A stretch of 63,747 nt of DNA, counting the filler. It is 11 parts of 11 records of this genome, joined end to end, with 100 filler letters (N's around TTAATTAATTAA, not from the genome) between each part and the next. Parts side by side here need not be neighbours in the genome. Positions count along the whole stretch, not along the records: positions 33,683 to 41,105 come from SRR7504441_4700; 10 more parts are not named here. The stretch is one strand, 5' to 3'. The notes below the pieces were generated by a model. The model had not been told where the DNA came from. It searched no databases and worked only from the letters and a program-made list of their open reading frames with translations. Positions 19,762-63,613 of the stretch are shown piece after piece. Every line of letters begins with the position of its first letter. Position 1 is the first letter of the stretch. The translations under genes and the position numbers were made by a program.

Positions 19762-19821
19762 CGACACACCGAGGGCCGGGGGCCAAAGTAACGGTATTAT
19801 TTTGCTCCTCTGCAGCTGGAC

Positions 19822-20406
19822 ATGTGCGACCAGCCGCCCAAGAAGCGGGCCAAACACCCGACTCCGCCGGTCTGGCTGGTGCTCGGGCATCATTGTGCGC
19901 CTGGTCGGGTAGCCACGCGTGCGCTCCGATCGGCCGGCCGGCACGTGATCGGGCTGGACCGGCCAGAGGAGCTTGGGGAGGCGCTGGCCGCCCACCCCGC
20001 CGCCCAGGGGCTGATCACCACCTTCCCCGGCGAGCAGCTGGTGCCGGCCGGCCTGAAGCTGATCCAACTCGTCACCAGGCCGGGAAGCGAGCCGCGGCCT
20101 GGAGCGACGGTGCTTGTGATGGGAACAGAGCTGCTGCTGCCCGGGGCCCCCGGCACAGGACTGCAGGCGGAACAGTTCTACGTCAGTCGGGGCGAAATCA
20201 GCTTTGAGATGGCAGATGCCGAGCAGCCAGAAGTACTTGCGTACAAGACGCTGCGTGGCTCGATGCCCGAGGTGCTGCATGTACCACCGGGAAATATACA
20301 CACCTTATGGAACCCATCGGCAACACAGGATGCCGTGGTGGTGATCGCAACGACCCAGCGGTACATACCAAATAGCGCCCCAGATACTTACTATGTCAAG
20401 AAATAA
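19822..20406 (+). CDS. Cupin-domain protein resembling the C-terminal cupin of CapF/WbjC (WxcM-like)
   Basis: EQFYVSRGEISF..VLHVPPGNIHTLWN..PDTYYV matches from memory the CapF/WbjC cupin tail. N-terminal VLG..GRVATRALRSAGRHVIGLDR resembles a Rossmann first strand and helix. Confidence 0.6.
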   Translation: MCDQPPKKRAKHPTPPVWLVLGHHCAPGRVATRALRSAGRHVIGLDRPEELGEALAAHPAAQGLITTFPGEQLVPAGLKLIQLVTRPGSEPRPGATVLVMGTELLLPGAPGTGLQAEQFYVSRGEISFEMADAEQPEVLAYKTLRGSMPEVLHVPPGNIHTLWNPSATQDAVVVIATTQRYIPNSAPDTYYVKK

Positions 20407-25380: not shown

Positions 25381-25402
25381 CGTCCGTTAAATTTAACGGA
25401 CG
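25381..25402. promoter_or_regulatory. Perfect 22-bp palindrome with two inverted AACGG sites in a bidirectional promoter
   Basis: CGTCCGTTAAATTTAACGGACG is its own reverse complement. It lies between divergent ATGs at 25334 (-) and 25466 (+). Confidence 0.6.
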
Positions 25403-25465
25403 ACACGGAAAGATGACTCACTCATCAAGGCAAGACTTTCTGACGAGCGAGCACCGGGAACCAAC

Positions 25466-26905
25466 ATGTCGAGCATCACAGAGATCACCGAGGAGCCATA
25501 CAAGGTTAAGGACATTGGTCTGGCCGCGTTCGGGCGGAAGGAGCTTGACCTCGCCGAGGTGGAGATGCCCGGTCTGATGGCTTTCCGCACCGAGTTCAAC
25601 AACAAGCCCTTCTCCAACTGCAAGATCATGGGCTCGTTGCACATGACCATCCAGACCGCCGTGCTGATCGAGACCCTCAAGGAGTGCGGCGCCGACGTGC
25701 GGTGGTGCTCTTGCAACATCTTCAGCACCCAGGACCACGCCGCCGCCGCCATCGCCGAGGCAAAGTCCGCGGCCGTCTTCGCATGGAAGGGCGAGACCAT
25801 CGAGGAGTACTGGTGGTGCACTCTGCAGGCCCTCACCTGGCCCGATGGCAGCGGCCCCGACATGATCGTGGATGACGGTGGCGATGCCACCCTGCTAATC
25901 CACGAGGGCGTGGCCGCCGAGATCGCGTTCGAGGCGGATGGCACCCTGCCCGACCTCGAGGGCAAGACCGGCGAGTTCCTGGTGGTGCTCACCCTGATCA
26001 AGGGCCTGCTCGAGAAGGGCGTGACCAACAAGTGGCGCCCGATGGTTGAGAAGTTCGTCGGCGTGTCTGAGGAGACCACCACCGGCGTGCACCGGCTGCA
26101 ACAGATGGCTGCCCAGGGCAAGCTGCTCTTCCCGGCTATCAACGTTAACGACTGCGTGACCAAGTCCAAGTTTGACAACCTGTACGGCTGCCGCCACTCG
26201 CTGGTTGACGCCATCTACCGGGCCACCGACGTCATGCTGGCTGGCAAGGTCGCGTGCTGCTGTGGGTTTGGCGATGTTGGCAAGGGCTCCGCCATGTCTC
26301 TCCGGGCTGCTGGCGCTCGTGTGATCGTGACCGAGATCGATCCGATCTGTGCTCTTCAGGCACTCATGGAGGGCTACCAAGTGGGGACCACTGAGGACGC
26401 AATTGCGGCTGGTGCCGACATCTTTGTGACTTGCACCGGCAACAAGGACATCCTTAAGGCTGACACCATCATGAAGATGAAGAACAACGCCATCGTGTGC
26501 AACATCGGGCACTTTGACAACGAGATCGAAGTGGAAGTCCTCCGCGCAATCGAGGGTGTGAGCGTGGAGAACATCAAGCCGCAGGTCGACCGGTTCGTGC
26601 GGCCGGACGGCTCCGGCATCATCCTGCTCGCTGAGGGCCGGCTGGTCAACCTGGGCTGTGCCACTGGCCACCCGAGCTTTGTCATGTCGTGCTCCTTCAC
26701 TAACCAGGCTCTGGCCCAGCTCGAGCTATGGACCAACAAGGACAGCGGCAAGTACGAGAAGCAGGTCTACTTGCTGCCCAAGCAGCTGGACGAGAAGGTG
26801 GCTCGTCTGCACCTCGAGAAGCTCGGCGCCAACCTGACCGTGCTCAGCCAAGAGCAGGCCGACTACATTGATGTAAAGGTCGATGGGCCATACAAGCCCG
26901 ACACC
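25466..26905 (+). CDS. AHCY: S-adenosyl-L-homocysteine hydrolase (3' end cut at contig edge)
   Basis: Motifs [88 protein letters not shown]. Has the catalytic-domain insertion that animal and fungal AHCY lack. Intronless. Confidence 0.98.
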
Positions 26906-27005
26906 NNNNNNNNNNNNNNNNNNNNNNNNNNNNNNNNNNNNNNNNNNNNTTAATTAATTAANNNNNNNNNNNNNNNNNNNNNNNNNNNNNNNNNNNNNNN
27001 NNNNN

Positions 27006-30562: not shown

Positions 30563-31826
30563 TCACGATACATGCTCAAACCTATATCGAATCGGCTCAG
30601 CTTTCTTCTGCGGCCCGAGCACGATCACGTCGTTCGGGTTGAGCGGGCTGGCCTGGCCCTTGACCAGCTTGTCCGTGTTTAAGTAGGTCCCATTTGTGCT
30701 AAGGTCTGTGATCGTCCACTGTGCTCCTGCCCAGCCGATCTCGAGGTGCAGTCCAGACACGACGTTGGACGGCACCACCACGTCGCTCTTGGCCTGCACC
30801 CGCCCCAGCCGAGTGGTCTTCCGGCCAAGTTTGATCACGGCCGGAGCTCCGTCGGTTGCCGACCCGTTTTGCTCGAGTAACAGCACTGCGTGCCCGGGCT
30901 GTGACTCCTCCGGCTGGGTGTGCTGCGTCATCGGCAGCGAGCCAGCTGGTGGCCCTGTCCAGCCACTCGCGCTAGGCGGCCTGCTGGCCACGGCCTCCAG
31001 CGGCATTGGCTGGATGGCGGCTTCAGCAGCAGCCCTGTGAGTGCAGGCAGTTGTTAGAATGTGCAGAAGGAAAGGCGGCTGCTCACCCTGGCTGGTGCTC
31101 CATCTCGCCCGCCTTGCGCTTGGGCTGCCGGCACGAGGGGCAGCTCCGAATGTGTTGCTTCAGAGCGGGCATGTTCCTGCACTCGAGGCCACATAGGTGA
31201 CACCTCAGAGGGCCCTCAAGCAGCCGCTCTGCAGCAGCCAAGTCCGGCTGGACAGTGCCCGCCAGCACGCTCGCCCGCAGCCGGTCGGCCGTGACGAAGA
31301 AGCCGGAGGTGAAGCTGAGCCAATGCTTCTTCTTCTTCATGGACTCACTTTCGAAATCCTGACTGACCAGGTGCAGATGCAGCGGGCGCATGGACGGCAC
31401 CGCGTGCACCCCGCACCGCATCGGCCCGGCCGCGCCCCGCCGCTCGAGCCCGCTGGCAATCCACCCGGCCAGCTGGGTCATGTGGTCCAGTAGCCCGGCG
31501 TGCTCCCGCCGGAGGGCCAGGGGACCGGACAGCTGCTCGTCCCTGGGGATGATTAGCAGGTGCACCAGAGCCTTGGGGTAGGCGTCATAGATCACAGCGC
31601 ACCGGCTGTCCTCATAGTACACTTGCGCGTCGGTCCATCGCAGTTGCCCGCCGCACCAGGCCGGCTTCACCGCCGGCGGGCTGTATTCGGGCGGCTCTGA
31701 CTGCGGAGGCTCGGAGCCTGGTTGCACTCCGCACGCTGCGAAGCTGAGGTGTGACCGTCGCTGGGAGGTCACGACGTACGAGTCGTCGACCACGTCCTGT
31801 GAGTACGGCTCCTGCTGCCACGGCAT
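30563..31826 (-). CDS. APTX: Aprataxin-like protein (HIT + C2H2-type zinc finger) with C-terminal FHA domain
   Basis: DAYPKALVHLLIIPR, HAVPSMRPLHLHLVSQDF, KKHWLSF, CHLC..LKQH. A GT-AG intron at about 31035-31086 joins HQPG in frame to an FHA domain (LGR..VSGLHLEI..DLSTNGTYLN). An extra 3' exon to about 30353 is possible. Confidence 0.85.
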
Positions 31827-31897
31827 TCGCCTAGGGGGGGGGCCACCCGCAGTGCCTCGAACCATCCGGAAGTCGTCGGCCGGTTCGGGCGAGAAAG

Positions 31898-32582
31898 ATG
31901 CTGGTCAGGGTGCTGGCGAGCCGCGGTGTTTGCGCGGCCCGCAGACTGGGGACGAGCCGGCCTACCCAACTGCGCCGAATCACCGCGACGGCTGGCCGAG
32001 TGCCCCAGCTCCCGCTGGTCGGAGCCCGCTGGCACTCGACGGCGCCGGAGGAAGAGGAGCGCCGGCCCGAGCCGGCGGCCGAGCCGGTACGAGAGCTGGT
32101 CTACGAGGTGGCCCCGGGGAGGGGGCAGCCGGCTGAGTACTGGCGGTGCACAGGGGCCGTTCCACGGGCTGCTCCGCAAGGTGAAGATGGTCTCGGTGTT
32201 CAGCTCAGCAGCCACGCTGATTAGCATGCCGATCCTGAGCATGCTCAATACGTCGATCTCGCTGCAGGGCCGAGTGACCATCGCATTCACCTGCTGCGTG
32301 TTCGCGGTGGGCACCACCGCCACGGTGCAGTGGGTTGGGTCGCCATACGTGGCGCGAATCTGGCGGCTGGACCAGGACGATGACGCTGGCCAAATAGAGG
32401 TGGAGACGTACAATCTATTCGCCCGGTCCAAGCTGGCTCAGTTCGGGCTGCCAGACGTGCGCTCGCCGGGCAGTGCCAACCCGTTTGTCTCTTTCTCGGC
32501 CAACGATCGGAACTACTACATTCACAAGAACTCTGAGTTGTTCTCCTCGCTCGAGTTGTATCAAAAGCTCCAACGCGCGTAG
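31898..32582 (+). CDS. TMEM70-family mitochondrial membrane protein
   Basis: Arg-rich mitochondrial presequence. After intron 32108-32153: LVYEGPFHGLLRKVKMVSVFS, two TM segments, SPYVARIW and VETYNLF. Confidence 0.75.
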
Positions 32583-37488: not shown

Positions 37489-40400
37489 ATGGTGAAACGG
37501 TGCCGGAGCCGGGCCCGCGGGGCTGGAGGGGGCGGACAGGTGTTATTTCTTCGGGGACGGCAAAGCGGACGGCTCAGCCAAGGACAAGAACCTGCTCGGC
37601 GGGAAGGGCGCCAACCTGGCCGAGATGGTCCGGATCGGGCTGCCGGTGCCGCCCGGGTTCACGATCACCACCGACACTTCGATCGAGTACACCAAACTCA
37701 AGGCCACTCCCCCAGGGCTGGAGACCGAGGTGCGCCAGTACGTGGGCAAGGTGGAGGGCACGATGGGCAGCCGGTTCGGCGACGCGGCCAATCCTTTGCT
37801 GATCGCTGTCCGGTCGGGCGCCCGGGTGTCGATGCCGGGGATGATGGACACGGTACTCAACGTCGGGCTGAACGACGTGACAGTCGAGGGCCTGGCCAAG
37901 CGCACCCAGGACCCGCGCTTCGCGTTCGACTCTTACCGACGGTTGATCCAAATGTACTCCGACATCGTACTCGAGCTGCCGCATAGCGACTTCGAGGCCG
38001 CGCTGGAGACCGCCAAAGCGGCCGCTAACGCCAAGACCGACAAAGACCTGACCCCGGCCCAGCTGCGCGCGCTGGTCGAGGAGTACAAGACGATCGTGCA
38101 CAAGCACACCGGAAAGCCGTTCCCTCAGGACCCGTGGCAGCAGGTTTTCTCGTCGATCCAGGCGGTGTTCTCGTCCTGGATGAACGACCGGGCCGTGCAC
38201 TACCGGGAGCTCAACCAGATCCCCGAGTCCTGGGGCACCGCGGTCACCGTAATGGCGATGGTATTTGGTAACATGGGCGAGCAGTCGTGCACGGGCGTAG
38301 CTTTTACTCGCAACCCTTCGACTGGCGAGAATCGGTTCTACGGCGAGTTCCTGACCAACGCGCAGGGCGAGGACGTGGTGGCCGGGATCCGCACCCCGCA
38401 GCCGCTGATGAAGGACAACTCGGGTCTGCCTTCTCTCGAAGAGATCCGTCCAAAGATCTTTAAAGAGCTGTGCGAGATCAGACGGATTCTCGAGAATAAA
38501 TTCCACGACATGCAGGACATCGAGTTCACCGTCCAGGATGGCAAGACTTACATGCTCCAGACCCGGAACGGCAAGAGGACCGCTGCAGCAGCTGTACGGT
38601 GCGAGCTCGCAGAGACTTGTGTCGTGACTCGCCGGACAGGACCGCAGTTGAGATGGTGGACGAGGGCCTGATAGACAAGGTCCGGCCCGGCCGGCCGGCT
38701 GGGGCTGACAGGCACGGGTGCAGCGCGAGGCGATCCTGCGCGTGACGCCAGAGAACGTCGAGTCTATGCTCCATCCACAGCTCGACAAGAGCAAGGCCGG
38801 CCAATCGATCGGGAAAGGGCTGCCTGCCAGTCCGGGAGGGGCCACCGGCAAGGTGGTGTTCTCTGCAAAGGAGGCCGAGGCCCGGGCTGCCAACAAGGAG
38901 AAGGTGCTTTTGGTGCGGATCGAGACATCACCCGAGGACCTTCGTGGGATGACTGCGGCTCAGGGCATTCTGACGGCTCGTGGTGGTATGACTTCGCACG
39001 CAGCGGTGGTCACCAGACAGATGGGCAAACCGTGCGCTGGCCGCTCGCCGGCTGGCCGACCGGTTGGGACAGGTGCGTGTGTGGGCTGGGCGAGCTGCAG
39101 GTCGACCTGGCAGCAAAGACTATGTCACTCGGGGGCAAGACTTTCACCGAAAAAGACACCATCACAATCGACGGCAGTACTGGCGAAGTCTACGCCGGGG
39201 CGGTGCGCGGCGGCGCCGTGGTGTCGTTGATTGCGTGTGCCAGATCCCTCGGATGGACGCGGCCACCGGTGGGTATTTCGCAAAGCTGATGTCGTGGGCC
39301 GATGAGGTTCGAAGGCTCGGAGTGCTGACCAACGCCGACAATGGCCGGGATGCCAAGCGGGCCCGCGACATGGGCGCCGAGGGGATTGGGCTGGTCCGGA
39401 CGGAGCACATGTTCTTTGAGGGCGAGCGGATCCACATCTTCCGGGAGTTCATTCTGGCGCAGTCGGAAGCTCAGCGGGAGGCCGCGATCAACGCGCTCCA
39501 GAAGTTCCAGACCGAGGATTTTGAGGGCATCTTTGCGGCCATGGACGGGCTGCCTGTCACGATTCGACTGCTCGACCCACCGCTGCACGAGTTCCTGCCT
39601 TCAGCCGCAAAAGACATCCAGGAGGTGCCTGGCTGATAGCTTGGCGGTTGTCACAGATGGCTAGGTGGCCTCGAGGCTCAAGCTGAAGCCGGAGGCGGTG
39701 CACTCAGAGATTGAGCGGCTGCATGAGTCAAACCCGATGCTGGGGCACCGCGGGTGCCGGCTCGGGATCACGTTCCCTTCACTGTACAACATGCAAGTGC
39801 GCGCGATCGTTGAAGCGGCCATAACTTGCGCAAAGCGCGGGATCAAGACCAAGCCCAAGGTGGGCCAAGGGCTGGTTGTGGCTAATCTAGGCCGGACAGA
39901 TCATGGTGCCGCTGATTTCGATGGGCCTGGAGCTGCAGCTGGTCAAGGACCAGTCTCTCCAAGTGATTGGCCAGTACAAGAGCTCGGGCGCTCTCACGTT
40001 TGACATCCCGATCGGAACTATGGTCGAGCTGCCCCGCGCGTGCATCATGGCGCACGAGGTCTTGTGCCCTGCACACAGGCTCGCTCAGATTGTGCCACAG
40101 GTGGCCAAGACTGCAGAATTTTTCTCGTTTGGCACGAATGACCTTACCCAGACCACATTTGGCATTTCGAGGGATGACTCCAACACTTTCCTCCCTGGTA
40201 CTTAGGGCTGGCATGATCTGACAGCTGAGTTAAGCATTTGCGTTTAGATTACAAGAAGAAGGGGCTAGTCTCTGGCGACCCATTTGCGGTGCTGGATCCG
40301 CACGGTGTCGGAGGCCTGATTAAGATTGCCTGTGACGGGGGACGGAGCACTCGGGCCGATCTGGAGATCGGAATCTGTGGCGAGCACGGTGAGCAATCCC

Positions 40401-40574
40401 GCCAAATTCGGCGCTGGACTGACTTGCCCGTCAGGTGGCAACCCCCAGAGTGTGGAGTTTGCACACTCCGTGGGGAAAATCGACTATGTATCTTGTAGTC
40501 CTCTGCGGGTGCCAGTTGCTCGCATGGCAGCTGCCCACGCCGCAATTAAGCAAGCGCAGACCTCTAAGCTGTGA
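37489..40574 (+). CDS. PPDK: Pyruvate, phosphate dikinase with C-terminal SKL; 9 introns
   Basis: [75 protein letters not shown]. Introns 37500-37539, 38599-38639, 38680-38723, 39032-39072, 39203-39243, 39625-39664, 39860-39899, 40059-40100, 40198-40247, 40389-40434 (ten counting the first). Confidence 0.97.
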
Positions 40575-41323
40575 TCATGCATTGGCTTTATATTGTCGGG
40601 ACCTATCAGAAGTCGCCAGCTGGCAAAGATGGCTCCAGGTAGATTCGACACATGCGATCTCTCGGATAAATACGAGTTGACCAATCATAGTCTACTTTAT
40701 CATAGCGGACCATAAATCTATTTTATGTACAAAGCCTATAATTATACTCGTACAGCCTGTACCGAACAATTATTATTTTTAAGCAATGTTCCATGATCGT
40801 ACTAGCCTGATTTGATGAGCTTGTTAGTAAACGAGTCAAGCACTTTGTCCTCCTCGAGCTCCGGAGCTAAAGTTCTGCTTAGTGAGGGACTGCTTGTGTC
40901 TCCATTTGCTGTACGCGTTGGACCCAACTCTAACCCAACTCCGTCGCCTACTGCAATTTCGTGTACGTCATTCAGAGTGCTTTTCGTTGCAGGCGTCAGG
41001 AGCAGCTTGGGAGCATTTAGTCCGGGACGTGTCGGCTCAGGCGGTTACGTGGTTGATCTCGCCTGGTGTGCTCGAGTGATCACTTGCATCCATTGATGAA
41101 ACGTCNNNNNNNNNNNNNNNNNNNNNNNNNNNNNNNNNNNNNNNNNNNNTTAATTAATTAANNNNNNNNNNNNNNNNNNNNNNNNNNNNNNNNNNNNNNN
41201 NNNNNTTAGTCATAGACACCCCTCCTAAGCATGAAACCTAACACCCGATCTAGGCACCCTGGTACACGTACGACAGATCTCTGTAACTAGTGTACATGTA
41301 CGTGTAATTGAATTGCGCATGCG

Positions 41324-44308: not shown

Positions 44309-44684
44309 GTGCAACGGCTTTTCTCGGGAAGCTCAGGCCAAAACTTGAGCACAGGCTTCTGGGCCAGTGGGGTTAATTAACTTGGGCGCTATATAATTAT
44401 AGCGCGTCGATGCATGCATTACATCGTACGGCAGGACTTCGGTCGAGTCTGTTTTTGAGGCATGATTTGACGACGCCTATTTCACGCTCGCTGGCCGACT
44501 AGCTGGCCGACACTGAACACATTGCGCGACATCTTACGGCCCCCGGGCTGCTCTACCCACCGGGGAACGGACCGGCAAGCCGCANNNNNNNNNNNNNNNN
44601 NNNNNNNNNNNNNNNNNNNNNNNNNNNNTTAATTAATTAANNNNNNNNNNNNNNNNNNNNNNNNNNNNNNNNNNNNNNNNNNNN

Positions 44685-47600
44685 GCTTCGACCTCGAAGC
44701 CAGCCTCTCCTGCTTTGGTCTTGGGAATGACTGTCACTTTGAGTGTGCAGTCGACGTCGTGGACTGTCGGCGTGTATGTTCGCCGAACCCCTTCGGCGAT
44801 AGGTATGAATTTTGGCTCGTCCTCGTCGAGCTTAATGTTAGGTGCCTTTCTCCACCACTGCCACACGTGATCGCCCTCTTCACCCCCTCGGAATGTCCCA
44901 TTGGCATACAATTCGGCACCTTCTCTCAGATGCCCCTTGATTGACAGCGGCCGGATTGTCGGTTTGAAGGGAGCAATGATGTCTGAACTGGGAGACCACT
45001 CAATTCGTCCTTTAATCCCGTCCGATCTGATAGGAATGTAACCGAACTGAATCCGGCGGTTTATGTCTGGCAGATCTGGATAGTATGTTTCGTCGGTGGC
45101 GGTCGTGATCACTTCGTACCCTCGCTTCAGATCCGGTCTCATCCGCCTCCAGCAATATACAGATTTGCCCTCCCTCCCTCCCTGGTACTGACCTAACCCC
45201 TGGAGAAGAGGCTGAGCCGGGTGAACCCGCTTCACTTTCACGTTGTTCACACACGGAGCAGATGCCTCCACCAGCGAGGTGCTAGTGTAAGTTTGCTCCT
45301 TGCCCTGGACGCCCATGGTAGTGATGGGGGTGTAAGACAGATGTAGACGGTAGCCCACGTCCTCGACTGTCGGCGTGTATTCTCGGCTGGTCCCAACGAC
45401 AGTTCCAATGTACCTGCGGTTGCCAGTGTCGATCCTTGCCGTGGGCAGCGACGGCGTTTCCTCTTGGGAGATGAGCGCCCTTGTGTTGTCTACGCTCTTG
45501 GGAGATGTGTTGTCTACGCTCATCTCGCTCGCCTCGTCGTCAAACTCAGTTCTCTCAGTTCTCTCAGTTCTTCGTGAGATCGACATCGCACTCTCAGAGG
45601 CAAAGGTTGAGCTCATCTGGCTGTCTTCATCATCGGGCTCAGTGGCTTCGTTATCTGTCCCTTTAAACCAGCCCCCTTTGTTGTTGGTTTTGTGCATCGC
45701 TGCAGCAATCTTCCCCAGGCCTCGCCTGCTCGCCGATAGACTTTCGTCTTCGTCGCCTAGCTCTTTCAGCCGATACCAAGCAAAGATTGAGTTGCCCTCC
45801 TGCCCCCCCACAAACAGCCCTATAGGATTGAGCTCTATGCCCTCGATCATCGGCTCGGCACAACGGAGCTCGTGTACATACGCCTTCTCGGATATGGCGA
45901 GCTGCCCGAGGCATTTTTGTGCGTCGCTGCGCACCTCTTGCCACGAAGACTTGAGCAGTGTGCCAACAAGCGGCAAGAGTCCGCCTTCCAAGATGAGCAA
46001 TATTCGGTTAGCTTCTATCTCAGCCATGGATGCCAACGCCATTGCAGTCCGCCGCTGCACGTGCTCGTCATGAGAAAAGGCCAAGGTGATCAGCTCTCGA
46101 ACCCCACCTTGGGCCACGAGCTGGGTCTGGGCATGTGGCGTGCTTGCAAGCTTGGCCAACTTGTCCGCCGCTCGTCGCTGATGCTCAATATCGCCGTAGT
46201 ACTTGGCCAGTGCCACGTCCGAAGCCATGTCGCCATGGAGTTGCTCGCCCTCCACAATTGCCTCTCTCATTAGCCCTACGTCAAACCCTGTAGCCTCAGC
46301 AAGCGCGCCAACAGCCTTTACTGCCCACTCTTTGATCTTGTCGTCCTTCGAATTGCACAGTCTCACGACGTTTGCTCGGTTAGGGTCTGTCGCGATTATA
46401 TCCTAACCAACTGTCAGCAAGTTCTGGGCCGGGCTGGGCTACCTTGACGTGTGTGTCAACCGCCAACGAGGCCAGAGCCTTGCAGCACTGGAGCTGGCAG
46501 TGCGCGTCGTCGAACGAGCAAGTTTGGAGCAGCTTGGCCACCGTATGCTTGGAGCTTACTTCGAGCCTCACCTTGTCGACTCGTCCAATGCACGCAATCA
46601 AACCGGCGCATGCTGCTCGGACCTGCACATCAGAGCCTTAGGCACCACCCCGGCACACACTCCGCACCCCGATGTCCTTGTGTGCCACGCCAACCGCACA
46701 GCTTTCGACGGCAGTCCGTCCCTCAATTCCAGGTCTGCCGGCCAACTTTTCGACGATCTCGGGCAGAGTTTTCTCCCGACTGTCTACTTCACTCGACGAG
46801 CAGAAGGCAACGAGCACAGGGTAAACTTCCTTCTGAAGCTTGGGAGCGCCAGTCGAGCTGAGACAGCCCACAAGCACATCAAACAGGTGAAACCGGTCCA
46901 CTAGATCGGCTTTCCTATCGTCGCGGTACAGGATTACCAGATTGTATAGGATCTTGACACAGCACCGCTTGACTTCCTCGTCAGTCGAAATGCTCAGAGC
47001 CGTGCAGACTTCGTGCACCCCGCCGTATTCGACACCGAAGAAAAGATCGTGGCTATCTTCGTTCTGGGCCAGAAGACTGAGCAGTAGGGCGCCACATCGG
47101 GAAATATAGTTATCGGCGTTGCTCAGCATCTCCAGCACTCTGTTGAAGCCAGTCTCGACCATATCGTCGCCGCCCATGGTCTCCAGCATCGCCTCGTGGT
47201 GTTCAAACATCCCAAACGTCCATGCCAGCGCCAGAGACGCGAACCTAATTGTCTCAATGTCTTCGTCCATGACACCCCTGTTAATTGCTGCTTTGGTTAG
47301 AGCTGGGAAAAACACATGTGTAGCAATTTGCTCCTGCGCTGTTTCGGACCGCGAGAGATTCGCAATTGCACGAGCTGCGTGTCTCTTGGCTTGGACTACA
47401 GCGTCAACGTCGGCCAGCACATCCAGTAGAAGGTCAATTGCGCCGGCCTCCAGCAGTTGCGAGTGGCATTGATCGAGGACAGACAGGTCAGCAAATGTGC
47501 TGCAAGAGAACGCCACCGCTTCATCAAATGTCGACCCCATCAGCTTGGCCACGATGGCAATACCGCCACTGGCAACCAACTCCAGCCTGTTCTGGTCTTG

Positions 47601-50264: not shown

Positions 50265-50364
50265 NNNNNNNNNNNNNNNNNNNNNNNNNNNNNNNNNNNN
50301 NNNNNNNNTTAATTAATTAANNNNNNNNNNNNNNNNNNNNNNNNNNNNNNNNNNNNNNNNNNNN

Positions 50365-53300
50365 CGGCTGCTGCTCACGGGCACCCCGCTCCAGAACAAC
50401 CTGATGGAGCTCTGGTCGCTGATGCACTTTCTGATGCCTCACGTGTTCCAGTCGCATCGCGAGTTCAGCGAGTGGTTTGCAAACCCTCTCACTGCGATGG
50501 TGACCGGCCGAGATCACCACAACAACTTCGATGTGGTGAAGAGGCTGCATGGCGTGCTCCGCCCGTTTATCCTGCGTCGGCTTAAGAAGGATGTCGAGCT
50601 GCAGATGCCGCCAAAGTATGAGCACGTGATCACCTGTCCTCTCTCCAAGCGGCAGCGCAACCTATATGACGAATTCCTCCGGAGGTCAGAGGTTCGCGCA
50701 ACGCTGGGCAGCGGGCGGCTGCTGGGCATCCTCAATGTGCTGATGCAACTGCGCAAATGCTGCAACCATCCAGACATGTTCGAAGAAAGGCCGATTGTGT
50801 CCCCTTTCGATATGCCGGCAATGAGTCTGGAGATTCCGTCGATAGTGCTCACAGCCAATGAGCCATCAATGTGGGACAAGGTCGACCTTGGCTTGCTCAA
50901 CCTGGATTGCATTGCCAGGGACAACAGCATGCTGGGCGACTCATGGAGCTGCGAGCGAGCCAAGGCGCTGCAGGAGCCATCGAGTCTGATAGTCGAGCAG
51001 TCGCTGCAGGTCTGTGAGGAGTACGGGCTTGGCTCGTCTGTCTTCACAAAGCACAACCAGGCCCTGCGCAGCCGGCAGAGGGCAGCTCGGACTGAGGTTG
51101 CGAACCGGATAGCTCTCAACAACTCGAGGCGTGTCCAGATGATGCCCGTTTACGGGCAAGATTTGCAACAGATTGTGACCCTTACCCCAAACAGAGGCAC
51201 CGCTTGTGCACTAGCAGCTAAGGACAACGGGAAATTCGGGCTGGTGTGTCCAACTGCTCTCATAGACGCTGTGGGCTCTTTGGAGCAGCGGATGCTGCAG
51301 ATGCAGCCGTACCTCACAATGAACCTTGTGTGCATCATACCCAAGACGAGGACCCAGGCCCCGGGAATCGTGTCGCGGGCACGTGAGACAGTGGCGCGGA
51401 TCGAGTGCCCACCAGTTTGCGCTTCACTGGAGACAGCTGCGGACTATACTCTGAGTCTCACCAGGCCGGTGGACATCAGGCTTGAGATGTTCTTCCCGGA
51501 CAAACGCCTGCTCCAATTCGACTGTGGCAAGCTGCAGCAACTGGACATCCTGCTTCGTCGGCTCAAGGCAGGTGGGCACCGCGCACTGATCTTCACCCAG
51601 ATGACTAAGATGCTCGACATCCTTGAGAGCTTCCTCAACTTCTATGGGTACGTGTATGTGAGGCTGGATGGCACCACGAGGGTGGAGGAGCGGCAACAGC
51701 TGATGGAGAGGTTCAACCACAACGACAAGATTTTTGTGTTCATCCTGTCCACCAGGAGTGGAGGATTTGGGATCAACCTGGTTGGGGCTGACAGTGTCAT
51801 CTTCTATGACAGTGACTGGAACCCAGCAATGGACGCGCAGGCTCAAGACAGAGCCCACAGGATAGGGCAGACTCGGCCTGTACATATCTATCGGCTGATA
51901 TCTGAGCACACTGTGGAGGAGAATATCCTCAAGAAGTGCAACCAGAAGCGACAGTTGGACAACTTAGTGATGCAGGACGGGTCTTTCACCCCAGACTTCT
52001 TCAAAAAGCTCAACATGCGTGAGCTGTTTGAAGGTGTGGATGGCATTGAGGAAGGCAGCAAGCCTGCAGCTGCTGGGCCAGTTTCTCAGGAGGAGCTGAA
52101 CAGTGCCATGGCAAACGCTGAGGAAGAGACAGATAGGCAAGCAACGCTGGCAGCAGATGTCGAGATGAAGGAGGGTGAGACTGAGTTTGAACTCAAGGGC
52201 GACGGCGACGAGGAGGGTGCTGAAGGGGAAGCGGAGGCAGCGGCAGCCGCCGAGCCGCTTGTCGGGGCGCCGCCTGAGAACCAGAGCGAGGCTGAGAAGG
52301 CTGGCGAGTTTGTGGGCACGACACTGTGTGGCAAGCCTCACGTGGAGGACGACGAGATGCTCAAGAGTGTGCAAGAGATGACCAAGACTGACGGAATCAA
52401 TCTGGCCATCGAAGAGAGGCTCTCCAACGTTCAGAAGTACGCGCTGCGCTTTGTGGAGAACGTATATGCCGACGTGGCTGCGCTGCAGTTGAATCAGCTG
52501 GACGAGAGGATGAACCAAGGGGCGCAGGAATGGGGGATGGGAGAGTTTGAGCGGATTCGGCAGGAGGAGGAGGAAGCAATGGACGAGGACGACGAGGTCT
52601 TGTTCTACGAAGTGCAGAACGCACAGACCTCGGCCGAGCTCTACTATCAGCATGCAGAGAGGCTGCGCTTGCAGGGGGTGCCTGAGGCGCAACTAGATGT
52701 ATTTGGACCCCCTGATCCGGAATCCGCAGATGTGTATGCCCACCCTGCAGACACGATGGAGGAGGACATTGCTGGCTACCTTGGCGTAAGGCCACCACAG
52801 AGCACCTCGACACTGAGACTGAAGAAGAAGCCCAAGAACAAGAAGAAGGCCAAGCATGAAGGGAGACACGATGGTGACTACCGTGAGCATTTCCACTACA
52901 AGGCTGGGCTCAAGTCGGATCAGCGGCTGGCTGAGATGGAGGAGGCTGAGAGGAGGGCGACAGAGGGTCATTATGGGCGAGGTGCGGACAGGCATGGCTA
53001 TCTCAAGGCCAGGAGCCTTAAGCGCAAGGCAATGGAGGATGTCTGCAATAAGAAGAGGCAGAGGGCCCAAGGTCGCACTGTGTTTGATGAGGCAATGTCA
53101 GATGACGAGCTGGATGCTGGGATGGCTGTAGGGGCTTTCCGGGGAGGCATGATGTCAGGAGCTGGCAGTGCTAGCCCTGGAGATGTCGGTGGGCTCTTCA
53201 GCTACACCAAGACCAAGGGCGTGAAGAAGCCAGCTCGTCGGGTGGTGACAAAGAAGGGCCCAGGGGACTCCAAGGGCAACAAGAAGAAGGACACAGGCTG

Positions 53301-54538
53301 GACACTGGAGGAAGACAGGGCATTGGAGCAGGCGGTGCGTGATTATGGCGACAACTGGAAGCTGGTGGCAGACATGGTGGACATGCACGACATGGTGCTG
53401 CAGAGGCGGCACTTGACCGACAACGAGTGCAAGGACTACTACTTTGAGCGTGAGTGCATCAGGGAGGACGGTGGTAAGCCTCCACACACACAGTCGCGCA
53501 CGGCGGTCGCAAATGCGGTGCTCCGAAGTGTGCAGCGCTGTGCTGGAAAGCAGCCGCCAATCTTAGATGAAAAGGCGGTGTCTGAGCCCAAGCTTAGGAT
53601 AGAAGCTCCCAAAGAGGAGCCTGCACCAGCCGAAGGCGAAGCTGAAGCGCCAGCAGCGGCTCCGGCAGCCCCAGCTCCCAAGTTCTTGGAGGGACTGGAG
53701 AACGTGACTGTCTCCCACGACCCGCTCGAGCTGATCAAGCTGGTGGAGGCTCAGAAGCCTAAGCAGAATATGGACGCCCAGTCGCTGAAGCAGCATCTCA
53801 AGCACCATCCAATGGGTGGCCGCAACTCACTGATGCGCGCTCACGCCTCGTCCACCTCCCAGCTGATGCAACAGATGAGCAACCAAGCCAGCGCACAGGC
53901 AGCTGCTGCCAAAGCGGCCGAGCCTGCAACCGCCCCAGATCAAGCGGGGGTTGGTGCGAGCCCAGCCAAGGGCCGGTCGCCTGCCAAAGTCGCTGCCTCG
54001 CCTGCTGCTCGTGGCGCTGCCAAGAAGGCCCCTTCCAAGAGGACCCCGAGGAACAGCAAGGCCTCCCCTGCCAAAGCGCCAGCGACACCACAGCAAGCGG
54101 CGGCTGGAACTGCGGCTGCGCAGGTGCCTACCACCGGGGCGAGCGGTTCTAAGGAGTGTTTCTGCAGGCGGCAGCACGCGCCCAGGCAGCAGCAGTGGCG
54201 TCTCCCATGGCAGCTGCGGTGAGCGCCCAGAGCCTGAGCTGTCGTCTGAGTGTGTGTGCTGGCAGGCGGCTCAGCAGACGGCGGCAGCGGGCCAGGCTGC
54301 AGCGGGCCAGCAAGCGGCTGCGGCAAAGCAGCAAGCTGCGGCTCAGAGTCAAGTGGCTCAGCAGGCCAAGGCACAGCAAGCAGCCCAGGTCATCCAGGCA
54401 GCTCAGGTGGCGGCTCAGCAACAAGCCAAGGCTCAGCAAGCAGCCCAAGCTGCTCAGGCTGCACAGGCAGCAGCTGCACAAGCAGCGGCAGCTCAGCAGG
54501 CAGCGGCACAAAAGGCAGCGTCGCAGAAGAAGGCTTAA
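50365..54538 (+). CDS. SWR1: SWR1/PIE1/Domino-type SNF2 chromatin remodeller, 5'-truncated
   Basis: LLLTGTPLQNNLMELWSLMHFLMP, HGVLRPFILRRLKKDVE, FPDKRLLQFDCGKLQ, FILSTRSGG, DSDWNPAMDAQAQDRAHRIGQ. Split ATPase, SANT domain (WTLEEDRAL..YGDNWKLVAD) and Ala/Gln tail. Confidence 0.93.
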
Positions 54539-58048: not shown

Positions 58049-61000
58049 ATGTCTTCCGAGATCTACTCTTGGGGATGGGGCAAAGGTGAGCCGCAGTGCG
58101 CCTTAGCTTAGCAACTGCACACGCCCTGCGTGTCGCATAGCTGCATAGTGGGCTGGGCGGGGAAGGGATTGCAGATCGGCTGTCAGCTGCTGAGCTGGCT
58201 TTGCGCAGATGGCCAACTGGGTCACGGCGATCGCATCTCTCAGAAGAATCCTACACACATCGACTTCTTCCAAGGCAAGCAGCTGAAGGCGCTTGCATGC
58301 GGAGGCTGGCACTCCTGTGCCCTCACAGGTCGGCTAGCCGCGTACCGGGCGGCCCGGCTGATTGGCTGGTGGTGGCAGTGGCTGGTGACCTGTTCACATG
58401 GGGCAGTGGCCGGTGTGGCCAGCTTGGCCATGGCGACTGGTCGTCGCAACGGTTGCCCACTCACGTATCGACACTCCCGCCAGGTCAGCCCTGCGCAGTG
58501 GCGGCTTGACGGTCTGTTGCAGTGGCGCACGTCGCGAGCGGCAGCTTCCACACGATTGTGCTCACCAAAACAGGCGAGGTCTACTCATGGGGATGCGGGC
58601 GTGACGGACAGCTCGGACACGGCGACTGGTACCCGGCCTATCAGCTGCTGGGTTGTAATATGTGGTGCAGGGGCAGCCCGCGCGTGCCTCACCTAGTCAA
58701 GGCTCTCCAGGGCAAGGATGTTGTCCAGGTTAGTCTCGGCTGCGCTCTGCGCCATAGCACTCGCTGCCTGCAATAACGTACTCACAACGTGCTTCAGGTG
58801 GCTTGCGGCGAGTACCACTCGGCAGCCCTTACAGCCAACGGAGAGGTTTACACCTGGGGAGATGGTGGCGACGGGCAGCTGGGACACGGCGACTGGCGGA
58901 CCAAAGGGTACAGACTGTCGCAGCCCCGGCTGGTCAAGGCACTCAGTGGCAAGGTGGGCCCTGCGCGCCAGCTCGTAGAGCTGAGTTTCATGGCAGGGCG
59001 TGAGGCAAATTGCGTGCGGCGAATACCACACGGCAGCGCTGACTGTCGATGGCGATGTCTTCACCTGGGGCAAATCAGTGAACGGCCAGCTCGGCAACAC
59101 CGATGATATCAAGAAAGTGACGGCACCGTCGATTGTGGACGGGCTGGGCGGCGAGCACGTCGACTCTGTCTCGTGTGGCGGAGCTCACACTTGCGTCATC
59201 ACTTCGAACGGCGACGTGTGGCAGTGGGGAGATCCGATCTCCGGCCAGCTCGGTCTGGTCTCCTCCGGCCCAGTGCGGTTCCCTTCCAAAGTGGAAGAGT
59301 TGTCCGGACAGAACGTGGTCGCTGTCGACTGCGGCAGTTTCCATACTGCTGCAGTCACTGAGAGTGGTGAGCTGTACACATGGGGTCACGGGGGCGAGGG
59401 CCGGCTCGGCCACGGTGACGAGGCCAACCAGACCAAGCCACGAGTTGTGCGCGCGCTCGCTGGGCAATCTGTTGCCCAGATGGCCTGTGGCCGCTTCCAT
59501 ACCGCAGCTTTTGTCGGAGACAGACCAGCAGAAGAGCCGCCGGTTGCCCGATCTTCGCCGGCGCCTGAAGCTGTGCACATCTCGGAGCAACTCGATGCTG
59601 CGCACCTGGACCAGATCGAGGCCGAAAACGAGCGGCTCCGGGTAGAGCTCAGCATGGGCGTGCCCGGGCCAGTGATCCCACCGCCATTCGCACCTCCTCC
59701 ACGCGGGGCCGACTCGCTGGCACTGCAGCAGAGGCTTGCAATGGTCGAAGCCGAACTCGAGCAGGCTTGCCGTGAGCGAGACATGTTTGCCGCCCAGGCA
59801 GCCGGATCGCCGTCCCGAGGGCCGATCCCACACCCAAGCGAGATGGAGCGGGAGATGCACTCAGCGCAGGTTGCTGACTTTGAGCTGAATGCTGCCCGGG
59901 GCAAGGCTGAATATCAGGTCATTTTTGGCGAGCGCAACAAACTGCTCGAAGAGTGCGAGAAGTGGCGCAAAGAGAAGGAGGCACTGGATATGGCTCTGAA
60001 GAACGTGACTGATAACTTTGCTGCGACCTCTGCGTCAATGGCCGAGGGGCACAGGCAGCGTGAGAACGACTTGGAGGACCGGCTGAGGGAGGCGATCGAC
60101 TGCTCGACCAAGGGCAACCCGAAGTCGCTCCGGGAAATGAATGAGATGAGGAAGCAGCTCGAGTTCACTACTCATGAGCTGGAGAAGGAGAGGCTGGCAC
60201 GCGAGGCCGCAGAGAAGACGTGTCGGGACCTGCGTGCGGAGCTGATGGGTGCCAAGGAGGAAGTGGATCGGATGTGGGAGGAGATCCACAACACCCGCGA
60301 GACCCATTCCAAGATTGTTGCAGATCTTGAGGACAAGCTGTCAAGAGCCACTGAGGATAAGGATGGTGCAATGGAGAACGCCACCAAGTCTCAAGAAGAA
60401 AGGCTGCGCCACTTTGAGGATGTTGTGATGGACAAGGCTAAGCAGGAGCGTGAAGAGCTCGCCCGGGCGCACATGGAGCTCGAGCAGCAGCTGGCACATG
60501 CCGTGGCTGAGAAGAACACCTTGGAGAAGCAGACCAGTCACCTGATGCTCGACCTTGAGAAGGCCCGTGCCGGTAAGGAGGAGCAGGATGCGCTCATCAC
60601 TGAACTGCGTACTCAAGTGCTTGAAGCTCAGGCTCAACGCGAATCAATCCTCAAGTCAATGGGTGATCTGGAGACATCGCTTCAGGCCTCCAAGTTGGAG
60701 CGGAACGAAGCAGCTGCTGTGGCTAGGAATGAGAAGGAAACCCTGGGCTCAATCCTGCGTGACCTTGAAGAGCAGCTCTCAGAGGCCAAGCTGGTGCGGA
60801 TGGAAATCACTGATCAGACTCGTGCTGACAAGGATGTGCTTGCCCGTGCGCTGGAGAACCTGGAGGGCCGCCTCAACTCGATCGCCTCAGAGAAGCATGA
60901 TGTGCAGAACTCTGCCAAGGAGGACATTGCCCGCATGACTGCAGCTCTGCGCGAGAAGGAGGAGGAGATTGTGGCTCTTGAGAAGGCAAAACGTGCAGTG

Positions 61001-63613
61001 GAGAAGCAGCTCGGTGACTCACAGCTTGAGCTTTCTGCCACCAAAGTTGGGTACGACACCATGTCCAAGGAGCTTCAGAGCGCCGAGATGCGATACGAGC
61101 AGGCTCAGGAGCGACTTGACGAGCTGCTGCGGCATGAGAAGGAGCTCGAGCTGCAACTGCAGGACGTGGAACACTTGAAGGAGGAACGAGAGAAGCTGGT
61201 CGAGAGGCTCAAGGGTGACCAAGGAGATGAGCTCCGCCGTGTGTCCGAAGAGCGTGATCGCATGCAGCGTGAGTTCAATCTGGAAATGGAGCGTTCACGG
61301 GCAGACAAGGAGTTCTTCCGGTCTGAGATCTCATTCCACAAGAAGACTGTGGCTGGACTGACAGCTGAGAAGGAGATCATGATGAAGCAGGCCAAGCACG
61401 ACAAAGAAGTGTTGACGCAGGTCATCCAGGATCTCGAGAACCAGCTTGCAGAGTTTGCTCAGTCAAAGGCTGAAATCATGGAGCGTACCAAGGATGAGAT
61501 GGAGCGCCTCGAGACCAAGCTTGCAGAGCTTGAACAGCGCTTGCGACAGGCCCAGAAGGAGAAGGTTGACGATGAGATTGCTGCCAAGGAGGAAATTGAG
61601 CGTTTGAACGAACAGCTGCACTTGCTCGAGGATGCATACTACAAGGCTGATCGTGAGAAGCGACAGACCATTGAGCGCACACAGCGTGAGATGGAGGCCA
61701 TGAATGAGGAGCTCCGTGAGCTGGAGGGACAACTCACTGAGGCTGTTCTTGGTCGCGATGCTGCAATGACAGAGTCCAAAGAGTCGCTGTCATTCATCAT
61801 GCATGAACTGCGCACCCTGCGTGGGGAGCTGACTCAGACCAAGGCCGGTCGCGAGGAGGTGATGACCCAGGCCAAGGGCAAGCAGCTTGCACTGGTCCAG
61901 GCCAAGGCTGATATGGAGTTCCTCTCTACTGAGCTCAAGGATCTGATGAACCAGTTGGTCCGTGCTCGAGCTGAGAAGGAGGAGATCTGGTCTCAATCAC
62001 GACATGACAAGGAGACTCTTGGCACCATTCTCAAGGATGCTGAGAACCGTGTTGTTGAGGCCCAAATGGAGCGTGAGCGTGATGTGTCTGGCTCTACACG
62101 CCAATTGGAGACTCTCAAGACAGAATGCTTGGAGCTGGACAAGATGCTCAAGGCAGCTCAAGAGCGCGAGCGCGGCCTGCTCCAGCGGGTTCAGATGCTC
62201 GAGGGCCGTGTGGAGCTCTCAGAAGCTGATCGTGAGAGATACCTTGGTCTCGTCCGTGAGGGCTATGAGGCAGAGAAGGGCGAGGTTCAGACTCTCAAGG
62301 AGCTTCTCAACCAGGCTAAGGCCGAGAAGATGCAGGTCTGGCAGCAGGCCCGCGAGGACAAGGAGCTGCTTACACGCCAGGTCGAAGAGCTCCAAAATGT
62401 CATGACCACACTCAAGAAGGAGAAGGAAGAGCACTACCGCGAATCTCGCCGGGACAAGGAGGTCATGGAGCGCATCCTATCGGATCTGGAGAACTCGTTC
62501 ACAAGGATGCAGGAGGAGCGTGAGGACTCACTGCAACAGGCTAAGACAAGCACTGAGATGCTTTCCACAGAACTCTCGAAGCTGCACGATCAACTTGAGC
62601 AGACTCGCGGCGACCAGGATGAGACTGCTGCACAGGGGCACACAGATCGGGAGATGTTGGGACGGCTGGTCAAGGACCTGGAGGAGCAGCTCGGCTCAGC
62701 ATTGAAGGCCAAGCTGCAGGGTGACATGATGATCCAGGCACAGAAGGCATCGCACGACAAGGAGATGGACAGGCTGAATGCACAGCTGGACTCGTTCCGT
62801 GTTGAGTATGACGAGCTCAAGGATCAGACGCTCAAGGAGAAAGAAGTGCTTGGTCGCATGATCAAGGACATGGAGGAGCAGTGTGCAACCGCCATCCGCG
62901 AGAAGACCCACTTCGAATCTATGCTGGCACAGGCCACTGGAACCCAATCTGACATGGAGTTTGCTCGTGAGGAGTACAAGAGCATGCTGGCAGAGGTGAC
63001 GTCCGATAAGGATGCTGCAATTTCAATGCTTCGGGAGGAGAAGGACTTCCTTGCACAACAGCTTAAGTCCCTGACCGATGATGGTGAAGCATCAAGCGAG
63101 AGGCTCAAAGCAACAGAAGAGGAGGTGGCTCAGCTCAAGGCAACGCAGCTGCAGCTCGCTGATCTGCGTGCCGAGCACCAAGCGCTAGCACGTGACTATG
63201 CTGAAATGGAGTCGGAGCTCCAGGCAGCCAAGGCTAAGGTTGTATCCCTAGAAAGAGATCTTGCTGGTAGCTCTTCAGGCGGCCAAGAGGCAATGAACGA
63301 ACTGCGTTACCAACTAGTACATGCCAAGGCAGACAAAGAGGAGGTGATGGCGAAGGCAGAGCACGACAAGGCCAAGATGTATGGCATTCTTAAGGAACTC
63401 GAAGCACAGCTTCGTGAGGCCACAGGTGGGGAGCCAACTGCCAACATATCGAGAATGATGGGTGAGTTCACGGATACAATGGGTTCTGGGGCAAGCGGTA
63501 CACAAATGTCAGACGGCACGTTGTACGCAGCAATGAAGGAGTACGAGGACAAGCTAGCACAAGCACAGGCTGACAACGAAGCCTTGCGAGCACAGCTAGC
63601 AAGCAGACAATAG
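58049..63613 (+). CDS. RCC1-repeat beta-propeller fused to a very long coiled coil
   Basis: Spliced [20 protein letters not shown], then repeats ACGxxHT..TWG..GQLGHG. About 1300 aa of E/K/L-rich coiled coil follow. Introns confined to the 5' part. Confidence 0.88.

Follow-up and report, generated by a model that had tools for sequence, protein, structure and literature searches.

Glycolytic and PPi-linked enzymes in peroxisomes are regarded as a hallmark of two groups, the kinetoplastids and the diplonemids. In trypanosomes, the PPDK carries the C-terminal tripeptide AKL. The available text of PMC9512073 describes the PPDK as bearing a PTS1 in every kinetoplastid and diplonemid analyzed, and the accessible part of PMC12121924 discusses PPDK as either a consumer or a producer of glycosomal ATP. 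We found no peroxisomal PPDK outside kinetoplastids and diplonemids in the literature searched, a search that left most subscription journals outside its scope. Here we describe a PPDK gene in a stretch of 63,747 nucleotides (the window; 11 parts of 11 records joined end to end with filler). The initial annotation had read from the DNA that the encoded protein ends in a canonical PTS1, -SKL, and the codons TCT AAG CTG TGA are indeed found at the end of the gene and in transcript contigs. The reading that we favor, and hold to be reasonably probable, is that PEX5 imports this PPDK into the peroxisome, at least partly, in an organism that is probably a telonemid, and that the enzyme, gained separately from glycosomes, would serve an ATP/PPi or gluconeogenic role. 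Judged from its sequence, the locus is likely an independent case, in a marine protist outside Euglenozoa, of a PPDK that carries a PTS1 and is probably peroxisomal.

The PPDK gene and its transcripts

The gene model was built from a tblastn search with the relative P0003, which gave eight collinear blocks from 37538 to 40571, and from a frame-preserving search for GT..AG pairs. It encodes 886 residues, a length that it shares with P0003 and P0005 (Table 1), and the ten introns measure, in order, 40, 41, 44, 41, 41, 40, 40, 42, 50, and 46 nt. An alternative open model that is longer by five residues fitted the alignment more poorly and was rejected. The protein begins with MVKRCYFFG, an instance of the N-terminus MVKRCY[FY]FG common to P0003, P0005, and P0006, and 51 nt ahead of the ATG the frame is closed by a stop, with no further ATG between the two. 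The earlier claim that the protein starts directly at the conserved domain, with no plastid or mitochondrial presequence, is thereby upheld. Every conserved PPDK exon is open under the standard code, and the long ORFs of the window are closed by all three of TGA, TAA, and TAG.

Three PPDK domains map to the exons, namely PF01326 (PPDK_N), PF00391 (swivel, PEP-utilizers), and PF02896 (PEP-utilizers_C), and the same three are precomputed for every relative in the homology listing. GGMTSH, CGEHGG, and two further motifs listed between them each occur once in the 886-residue model, at residues 457, 568, 772, and 837. We take GGMTSH to be the catalytic phospho-histidine motif and the others to belong to the PEP/pyruvate site. 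The motif set is intact, and a 60-sequence alignment shows no variation in its columns. The window protein is 83 to 85% identical to P0003, P0005, and P0384, and residues 3 to 880 of P0003 are matched by PPDKs of known structure (PDB IDs: 2X0S, 1KBL, 1DIK, and 1VBG, with E values of 1e-270 to 1e-292). By these sequence criteria and the RNA contigs described below, the gene is an intact, expressed member of the PPDK family (EC 2.7.9.1).

Table 1. Coordinates of the PPDK gene, its transcript-supported introns, and the AHCY gene along the window.
Feature	Position	Strand	Evidence or remark
AHCY gene	25397..26953	+	
PPDK coding sequence	37489..40574	+	11 exons, 10 introns, 886 residues
PPDK exon 1	37489..37499	+	ATG; MVK and first two bases of an Arg codon; sequence read, N-terminus match
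PPDK intron 1	37500..37539	+	40 nt, GT..AG; would join MVK to RCYFFG in frame; from homology only
PPDK exon 2, nucleotide-binding (PPDK_N) domain	37540..38598	+	PF01326, E = 2.2e-56; tblastn 83% identity to P0003; RNA contig over 37612-37991
PPDK exons 3 to 10 with introns (span)	38599..40434	+	Phospho-histidine swivel domain and PEP/pyruvate domain; PF00391, PF02896
PPDK exons 3 to 6	38640-38679, 38724-39031, 39073-39202, 39244-39624	+	Gene model
PPDK exons 7 to 10	39665-39859, 39900-40058, 40101-40197, 40248-40388	+	Gene model
PPDK introns	38599-38639, 38680-38723	+	Spliced in RNA contig X2
PPDK introns	39032-39072, 39203-39243	+	Frame and homology only
PPDK intron	39625-39664	+	Spliced in RNA contig X1
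PPDK introns	39860-39899, 40059-40100, 40198-40247	+	Spliced in RNA contigs X1 and X3
PPDK last intron	40389-40434	+	Spliced in RNA contigs X1 and X3
PPDK last coding exon, then TGA	40435..40574	+	Contigs X1, X2, X3, X4; synonymous differences only
PTS1 tripeptide Ser-Lys-Leu	40563..40571	+	TCT AAG CTG; sequence read; no difference listed in four covering contigs
PPDK stop TGA	40572..40574	+	Sequence read; indels directly downstream in a near-identical transcript
3' UTR to poly(A) site	40575..40733	+	RNA contig X1, 16-A unaligned end after 40733

Twenty-four public runs matched, all of them marine or seawater libraries with a shared word fraction of at most 0.18, and contigs from four of these runs were aligned. 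The start codon, intron 1, and the two introns placed by frame and homology lie outside the reach of the RNA contigs. Seven of the ten introns are confirmed as spliced in RNA contigs from two studies, all of them GT..AG and the last intron included: X1 (985 nt) is spliced at five joints, X3 (641 nt, from the same study as X1) at the same joints minus the first, and X2 (269 nt, from the second study) at two joints further upstream. X1 passes the stop codon and runs to approximately 40733, where 16 A's mark a poly(A) site. The model and the RNA thus agree on the last exon, on the stop codon, and on the 3' end. No alternative 3' form of PPDK was present among the RNA contigs, a level of assembly that rare isoforms would escape.

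The bases of SKL-TGA are covered by four contigs from four runs and three studies (X1 to X3 from RNA and X4 probably from DNA), with zero differences listed. Across the exons, eight of the nine differences listed in the contigs are synonymous and lie at third positions, the remaining one being V117A, whereas the 160 nt that follow the TGA in X1 contain five substitutions, a one-base insertion, and a five-base deletion. This contrast indicates that coding ends at the TGA and that the frame is constrained only up to that point.

These data bear on the possibility that the tag is an artefact, the real C-terminus lying elsewhere (through another last exon or a TGA decoded as sense) or SKL being a coincidence, which we regard as hardly credible. 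One relative lends itself to such a reading: the MERC ORF P0134 continues beyond ...NSKL with W and ten more residues. We put this extension down to an ORF caller that translated through a stop, and the read-through peptide is unlike the downstream frame of the window. Against an artefact stand also the poly(A)-tailed RNA contigs with the same last exon, the indels right after the TGA, the openness of the exons under the standard code, and the conservation of the tag among relatives, to which we now turn.

Conservation of the C-terminal tripeptide

The last exon translates into 45 residues closing in -TSKL, so that SKL stands immediately before the stop and fits the pattern [SAC][KRH][LM]. The last 12 residues contain two Lys and neither Asp nor Glu. 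A homology search with exon 2 as the query ('longer' length class) listed 120 proteins, among which seven clusters at 71 to 86% identity stand apart from bacterial-type PPDKs at 60 to 64%. P0384, P0385, and P0386 came from a further search, for which the query was the C-terminal 247 residues of P0003, and the members of the seven clusters together with these three make up a clade set of 39 sequences. P0004 and P0135 are without a C-terminus, and tails were therefore counted over the remaining 37, which are not independent and form nine clusters at 90% identity.

These 37 tails read SRL (21), SKL (14), SKM (1), and SKL followed by the read-through of P0134 (1). S-[KR]-[LM] is thus found at the very end of 36 of the 37 and at the aligned position in all 37; put differently, every clade member with a C-terminus carries a tripeptide of the type that the initial annotation had pointed out in the window alone. 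The residues that precede it differ widely (AAGN, AAAN, AAQT, AASV, STTS, KQT, DSTK, GKGVK, DATK, LAKSMK, and DVSK). As a control, [SAC][KRH][LM] closes only one of 113 non-clade PPDK hits (P0010, -SRL); the C-terminal helix motif is kept in 102 of these hits, with KTE as the most frequent ending (53). Of the 920 stop-to-stop ORFs in the window with 40 aa or more, three end in the same pattern, and of these three only PPDK is in a known coding frame, the other two being non-coding frames of longer ORFs. Judged on these counts, the tag on PPDK is not a matter of chance, and set beside the transcripts they leave the chance or artefact reading largely refuted.

In a maximum likelihood tree of 126 rows (the window, 120 hits, and 6 cluster members, with one 716-aa row dropped), the window sequence and its clade (14 rows) are monophyletic with an SH-aLRT support of 100 and a stem of 0.59 substitutions per site. 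A second tree of 53 hand-picked rows, computed by a quick search with LG+C20+F+G4 PMSF, recovers the clade (13 rows) with an SH-aLRT of 99 and splits it at the base into an SKL and an SRL subclade, which are 72 to 74% identical; the window PPDK is the first branch of the SKL subclade. Since the SKL and SRL subclades separate at the base of the clade, the signal goes back to the ancestor of the clade. P0010 (-LSRL) was considered as an extra tagged relative and rejected, as it nests among bacterial-type PPDKs in both trees.

The closest outgroup is a sister clade, P0387 to P0391, which is 60 to 61% identical to the window PPDK and joins the clade in an 18-row group with a support of 100. Its tails are longer by approximately 25 residues and end in -SRM (one), -PKM (three), or -PAL (one), of which only SRM fits the strict PTS1. 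If the PPDK tag reflects a convergent shift of metabolism into telonemid peroxisomes, the sister clade, with tails of the -SRM and -PKM kind, might extend it to another lineage. A scan of metagenome contigs with the clade alignment returned at least 80 loci, with identities of no more than 58% among the matches listed, and these were set aside.

An AlphaFold2 model of P0003, computed with the 60-sequence alignment, has a mean pLDDT of 88.5 and a pTM of 0.81. The last six residues have a mean pLDDT of 59, the lowest terminal confidence, and DSSP still assigns helix up to residue 884 of 886. The prediction of a PTS1 from the tripeptide alone yields false positives. The protein might accordingly be thought essentially cytosolic, like the enzyme of many protists, with a C-terminus that is buried or helical in the oligomer or that binds PEX5 poorly, and with SKL as a tolerated tail or a means of minor dual targeting; the reach of the last helix in the P0003 model favors this idea, which we nevertheless judge to be quite unlikely. 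A neutral tail would not keep S-[KR]-[LM] in nine of nine clusters and in the window while the upstream residues vary; such endings are rare outside the clade, and no acidic residue occurs in the window tail. The low pLDDT of the last six residues is consistent with a flexible tail, and an exposed C-terminus is plausible from the model.

Placement of the host organism

The organism was placed with AHCY, the gene for which lies in the same window. Listed AHCY matches are marine sequences at 74 to 94% identity, and the closest identified organisms in the homology listing are Oxyrrhis (71%) and red algae, Gloeochaete, a Baffinella cluster, and plants (68-71%). Cluster membership gave a name at higher identity: an 89% cluster (P0159) contains EukProt EP00656 Telonema subtile, and an 85% cluster (P0163) contains a second EukProt transcript. 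By BLASTP, the window AHCY is 88% identical to the Telonema subtile sequence and 88% identical to the second transcript. We computed a FastTree phylogeny of 111 rows from hits of 440 to 530 aa and the two EukProt transcripts, excluding longer fusions (plants and Gloeochaete) and fragments. The window sequence and both EukProt transcripts fall into one clade of 18 to 19 rows with a support of 100.

A further, independent hint comes from PPDK itself, since P0385, a member of the SKL subclade that ends in -TSKL, is a EukProt transcript and shares 81.6% identity with the window protein along 778 aa. Separately, the first 48 residues of P0385 resemble an adapter-derived artefact. The source of the DNA, a heterotrophic flagellate of the sea, is therefore probably a telonemid or a close relative (Telonemia, TSAR), as indicated by one named marker, AHCY, together with the EukProt PPDK. 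A search of the ESM Atlas with the SNF2 ATPase returned generic SNF2 clusters only and nothing taxonomic.

In the ocean, diplonemids are both numerous and diverse, and according to the available text of PMC9512073 their PPDK has a PTS1; the relatives of the window PPDK are almost all environmental sequences. A diplonemid or other euglenozoan host, which would make this a glycosomal PPDK of the kind already known, is nonetheless very improbable. The AHCY grouping with Telonema subtile speaks against it, and so does the architecture of the DNA. Approximately 8 strand switches occur among about 21 gene-like ORFs (defined by Pfam support or long open frames) in 64 kb, and PPDK alone contains ten cis-introns of 40 to 50 nt. 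The accessible portion of PMC10161547 describes the genome of Diplonema papillatum as unidirectional arrays of 5 to 120 genes each, with 1.6 introns per gene, for the most part long and of a median below 1 kb, and mRNAs that are trans-spliced to a spliced leader. No Rfam family or tRNA was found in the window scan, and hence no rRNA or spliced-leader RNA gene with which to place the organism. Three relatives have no common peptide in their translated 5' leaders, a weak point against a euglenozoan because no 5' RNA end was among them.

Bit scores of PPDKs against P0003 point the same way. The T. brucei enzyme (2X0S) scores 975 and that of Clostridium symbiosum 968, plant PPDKs (maize 1VBG and Flaveria 5JVJ) score 902 to 921, twenty bacterial-type PPDKs range from 973 to 1108 (above 1013 with one exception), and the sister clade reaches 1116 to 1126. 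The T. brucei PPDK thus lies below most bacterial PPDKs, and on these scores, which stand in place of a joint tree, the clade would have no particular kinship with the PPDK of kinetoplastids. By the tests available, from AHCY and PPDK scores to strand switches and cis-introns, the host is not euglenozoan-like. The initial annotation had considered a kinetoplastid unlikely from the introns and promoters, and this judgment can be extended to diplonemids.

Possible role in the peroxisome and relation to known systems

The window encodes a nuclear PPDK that lacks an N-terminal targeting sequence and whose sole visible targeting information is the conserved C-terminal PTS1. We infer that PEX5, the PTS1 receptor, most likely binds the enzyme once it has folded and carries it into the peroxisomal matrix, at least in part. 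The peroxisomal membrane lets small solutes pass more readily than nucleotides. PEP, pyruvate, and Pi would cross its pores more readily than would nucleotides, and by analogy with glycosomes we favor, as the likely reaction inside the organelle, PEP + AMP + PPi -> pyruvate + ATP + Pi. ATP could be regenerated in this way, and the AMP and PPi released by reactions of the acyl-CoA-synthetase type could be removed. In the opposite direction, the enzyme would make PEP for entry into gluconeogenesis. The ATP/PPi role is proposed by analogy with the ATP-balance problem of glycosomes, along with general peroxisome biology. No peroxin genes were recognized among the window ORFs.

Along the lines of the glycosome-like, PPi-dependent glycolysis or gluconeogenesis suggested in the initial annotation, a broader arrangement can be imagined, in which PPDK is one of several PTS1- or PTS2-tagged enzymes (such as PGK, GAPDH, PEPCK, MDH, and adenylate kinase) in a glycosome-like organelle that arose independently of Euglenozoa and houses a stretch of PPi-linked carbon metabolism. 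The age of the PPDK tag, conserved across the deep split of the clade, argues for a fixed organellar role, and in kinetoplastids and diplonemids the PTS1 on PPDK accompanies compartmentalized glycolysis or gluconeogenesis, as far as the available text of PMC9512073 goes. We consider this arrangement unlikely; of the interpretation in the initial annotation, the tag, the lack of a presequence, and the non-kinetoplastid host are supported, whereas the step to a glycosome-like metabolism stays conjectural. In the window, PPDK is the only glycolytic gene and no second tagged enzyme was seen; moreover, a single enzyme acting on small, pore-permeant metabolites can work without the rest of its pathway, so that the narrower ATP/PPi role fits equally well. 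In its widest form, telonemids, which are marine predators of a deep TSAR lineage, would have convergently moved part of their PPi- and PEP-linked metabolism into peroxisomes, a second glycosome-like origin of which PPDK is the first visible member; this we regard as doubtful.

If our preferred reading of a PEX5-imported PPDK is correct, peroxisomal PPDK arose more than once, and did so in an unrelated and ecologically widespread marine lineage. Such a case would offer a comparison for the question of why PPDK is peroxisomal at all, whether to keep ATP, AMP, and PPi in balance behind a membrane that is tight to nucleotides or to sequester a pathway. Should PPDK prove to be the sole tagged enzyme, the result would be more modest: an unusual peroxisomal ATP-regenerating enzyme of one protist phylum. 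Its importance hinges on the remaining contents of the telonemid peroxisome. Telonema cultures and transcriptomes exist; we found no direct statement on peroxisomes or microbodies in Telonemia, or on a Telonema genome, in the literature searched.

Among known systems, the glycosomal PPDKs of T. brucei (PDB ID: 2X0S), T. cruzi, and diplonemids are the nearest in design. Like the window protein, they are full-length three-domain enzymes with no presequence and a PTS1 at the end, and they probably share with it a part in balancing ATP, AMP, and PPi within a closed organelle, an analogy drawn from the available text of PMC12121924. They differ in their host (Euglenozoa, in contrast to what is probably Telonemia here) and in their setting, since the glycolytic pathway is co-localized with them, whereas here the PPDK gene alone was seen. 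Because the T. brucei PPDK scores 975 bits and bacterial PPDKs mostly 1013 to 1108, a comparison made by scores and not by a joint tree, the tag was most likely gained separately, and the PTS1 of the window clade is most likely independent of that in Euglenozoa.

Bacterial PPDKs, largely of alphaproteobacterial type, are 58 to 64% identical over the full length and have the same domains and catalytic motifs. Most of them stop within a few residues of the ARLAAAQAA helix and carry no PTS1, only one of 113 closing in [SAC][KRH][LM]. The eukaryotic clade, for its part, is set on the long stem, and the window gene has introns. The plastid and cytosolic PPDKs of plants and algae (maize 1VBG and Flaveria 5JVJ) belong to the same family and are more distant, at 902 to 921 bits. 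In the diatom Phaeodactylum, the accessible part of PMC2173943 describes a PPDK targeted to the plastid through an N-terminal presequence and reports no PTS1. The fungal GAPDH and PGK offer a different parallel. Cryptic PTS1s of these enzymes arise from alternative splicing or from read-through. As in the window protein, a glycolytic enzyme would be partly peroxisomal by virtue of a C-terminal tripeptide; in contrast to the fungal signals, the PPDK tag is constitutive, encoded in the only last exon found in the RNA contigs.

PPDK termini in the tagged clade and its sister

The closest outgroup of the clade of PTS1-tagged pyruvate phosphate dikinases (PPDKs) comprises the sequences P0387 to P0391, which share 60 to 61% identity with the window PPDK protein and form with the tagged clade a joint group with a support of 100. 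Some members of this sister clade are encoded on contigs of 7 to 26 kb. Their C-terminal tails are approximately 25 residues longer and end in -SRM (one sequence), -PKM (three sequences) or -PAL (one sequence); the first fits the strict PTS1 pattern, [SAC][KRH][LM], and the other two endings do not.

Variation at both ends was also observed within the tagged clade. P0134, an ORF from the MERC collection belonging to the P0003 cluster, continues beyond ...NSKL with a Trp and ten further residues, and this extension looks as though the ORF caller had translated a stop codon into Trp. P0134, P0135, and P0004 begin 5 to 7 residues upstream, with MGTQSQT or MGTLT ahead of MVKRC; an upstream ATG matching these starts is absent from the window PPDK.

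Introns and mRNA 3′ end of PPDK

All 10 introns of the PPDK gene (window positions 37500–40434) are 40 to 50 nt long with GT..AG ends, and 7 of them are confirmed by marine metatranscriptome contigs. Several carry a CTGAC-like stretch close to the 3′ end. The genome has a GC content of ∼59%, and uniformly tiny introns at this GC content are a notable genomic trait of a little-known lineage. Polyadenylation of the PPDK mRNA occurs immediately after ...TTTATGTACAAA (window positions 40720–40733), and therefore TGTA precedes the cleavage site by a few bases, an observation from one 3′ end, that of PPDK only.

Other window genes and the AHCY neighbor clade

Paired N runs occur at several window positions, totaling 880 N; one removes the last residues of AHCY and another the start of the SNF2 ORF, and the PPDK gene is free of them. 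None of the five other gene-like ORFs tabulated here has a bearing on peroxisomes.

Gene-like ORFs elsewhere in the window
Predicted product	Position	Strand
GH65 glycoside hydrolase	17569–20304	-
Aprataxin-like FHA-HIT-zinc-finger protein	30566–31904	-
AIR9-domain and HEAT protein	44633–46402	-
SNF2 ATPase with Myb/SANT domain (SWR1/INO80-like)	50317–54222	+
Large RCC1-repeat protein	58985–63613	+

In the AHCY tree, the Telonema-containing clade is adjoined by a clade of 50 rows, all environmental marine sequences, with 74 to 82% identity to the window AHCY. No named member was found within four of its clusters, P0173, P0188, P0194, and P0206, and a fifth cluster, P0212, falls in the same large AHCY group as these four. 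The 50-row clade may represent further telonemid diversity or an unsampled neighboring lineage.
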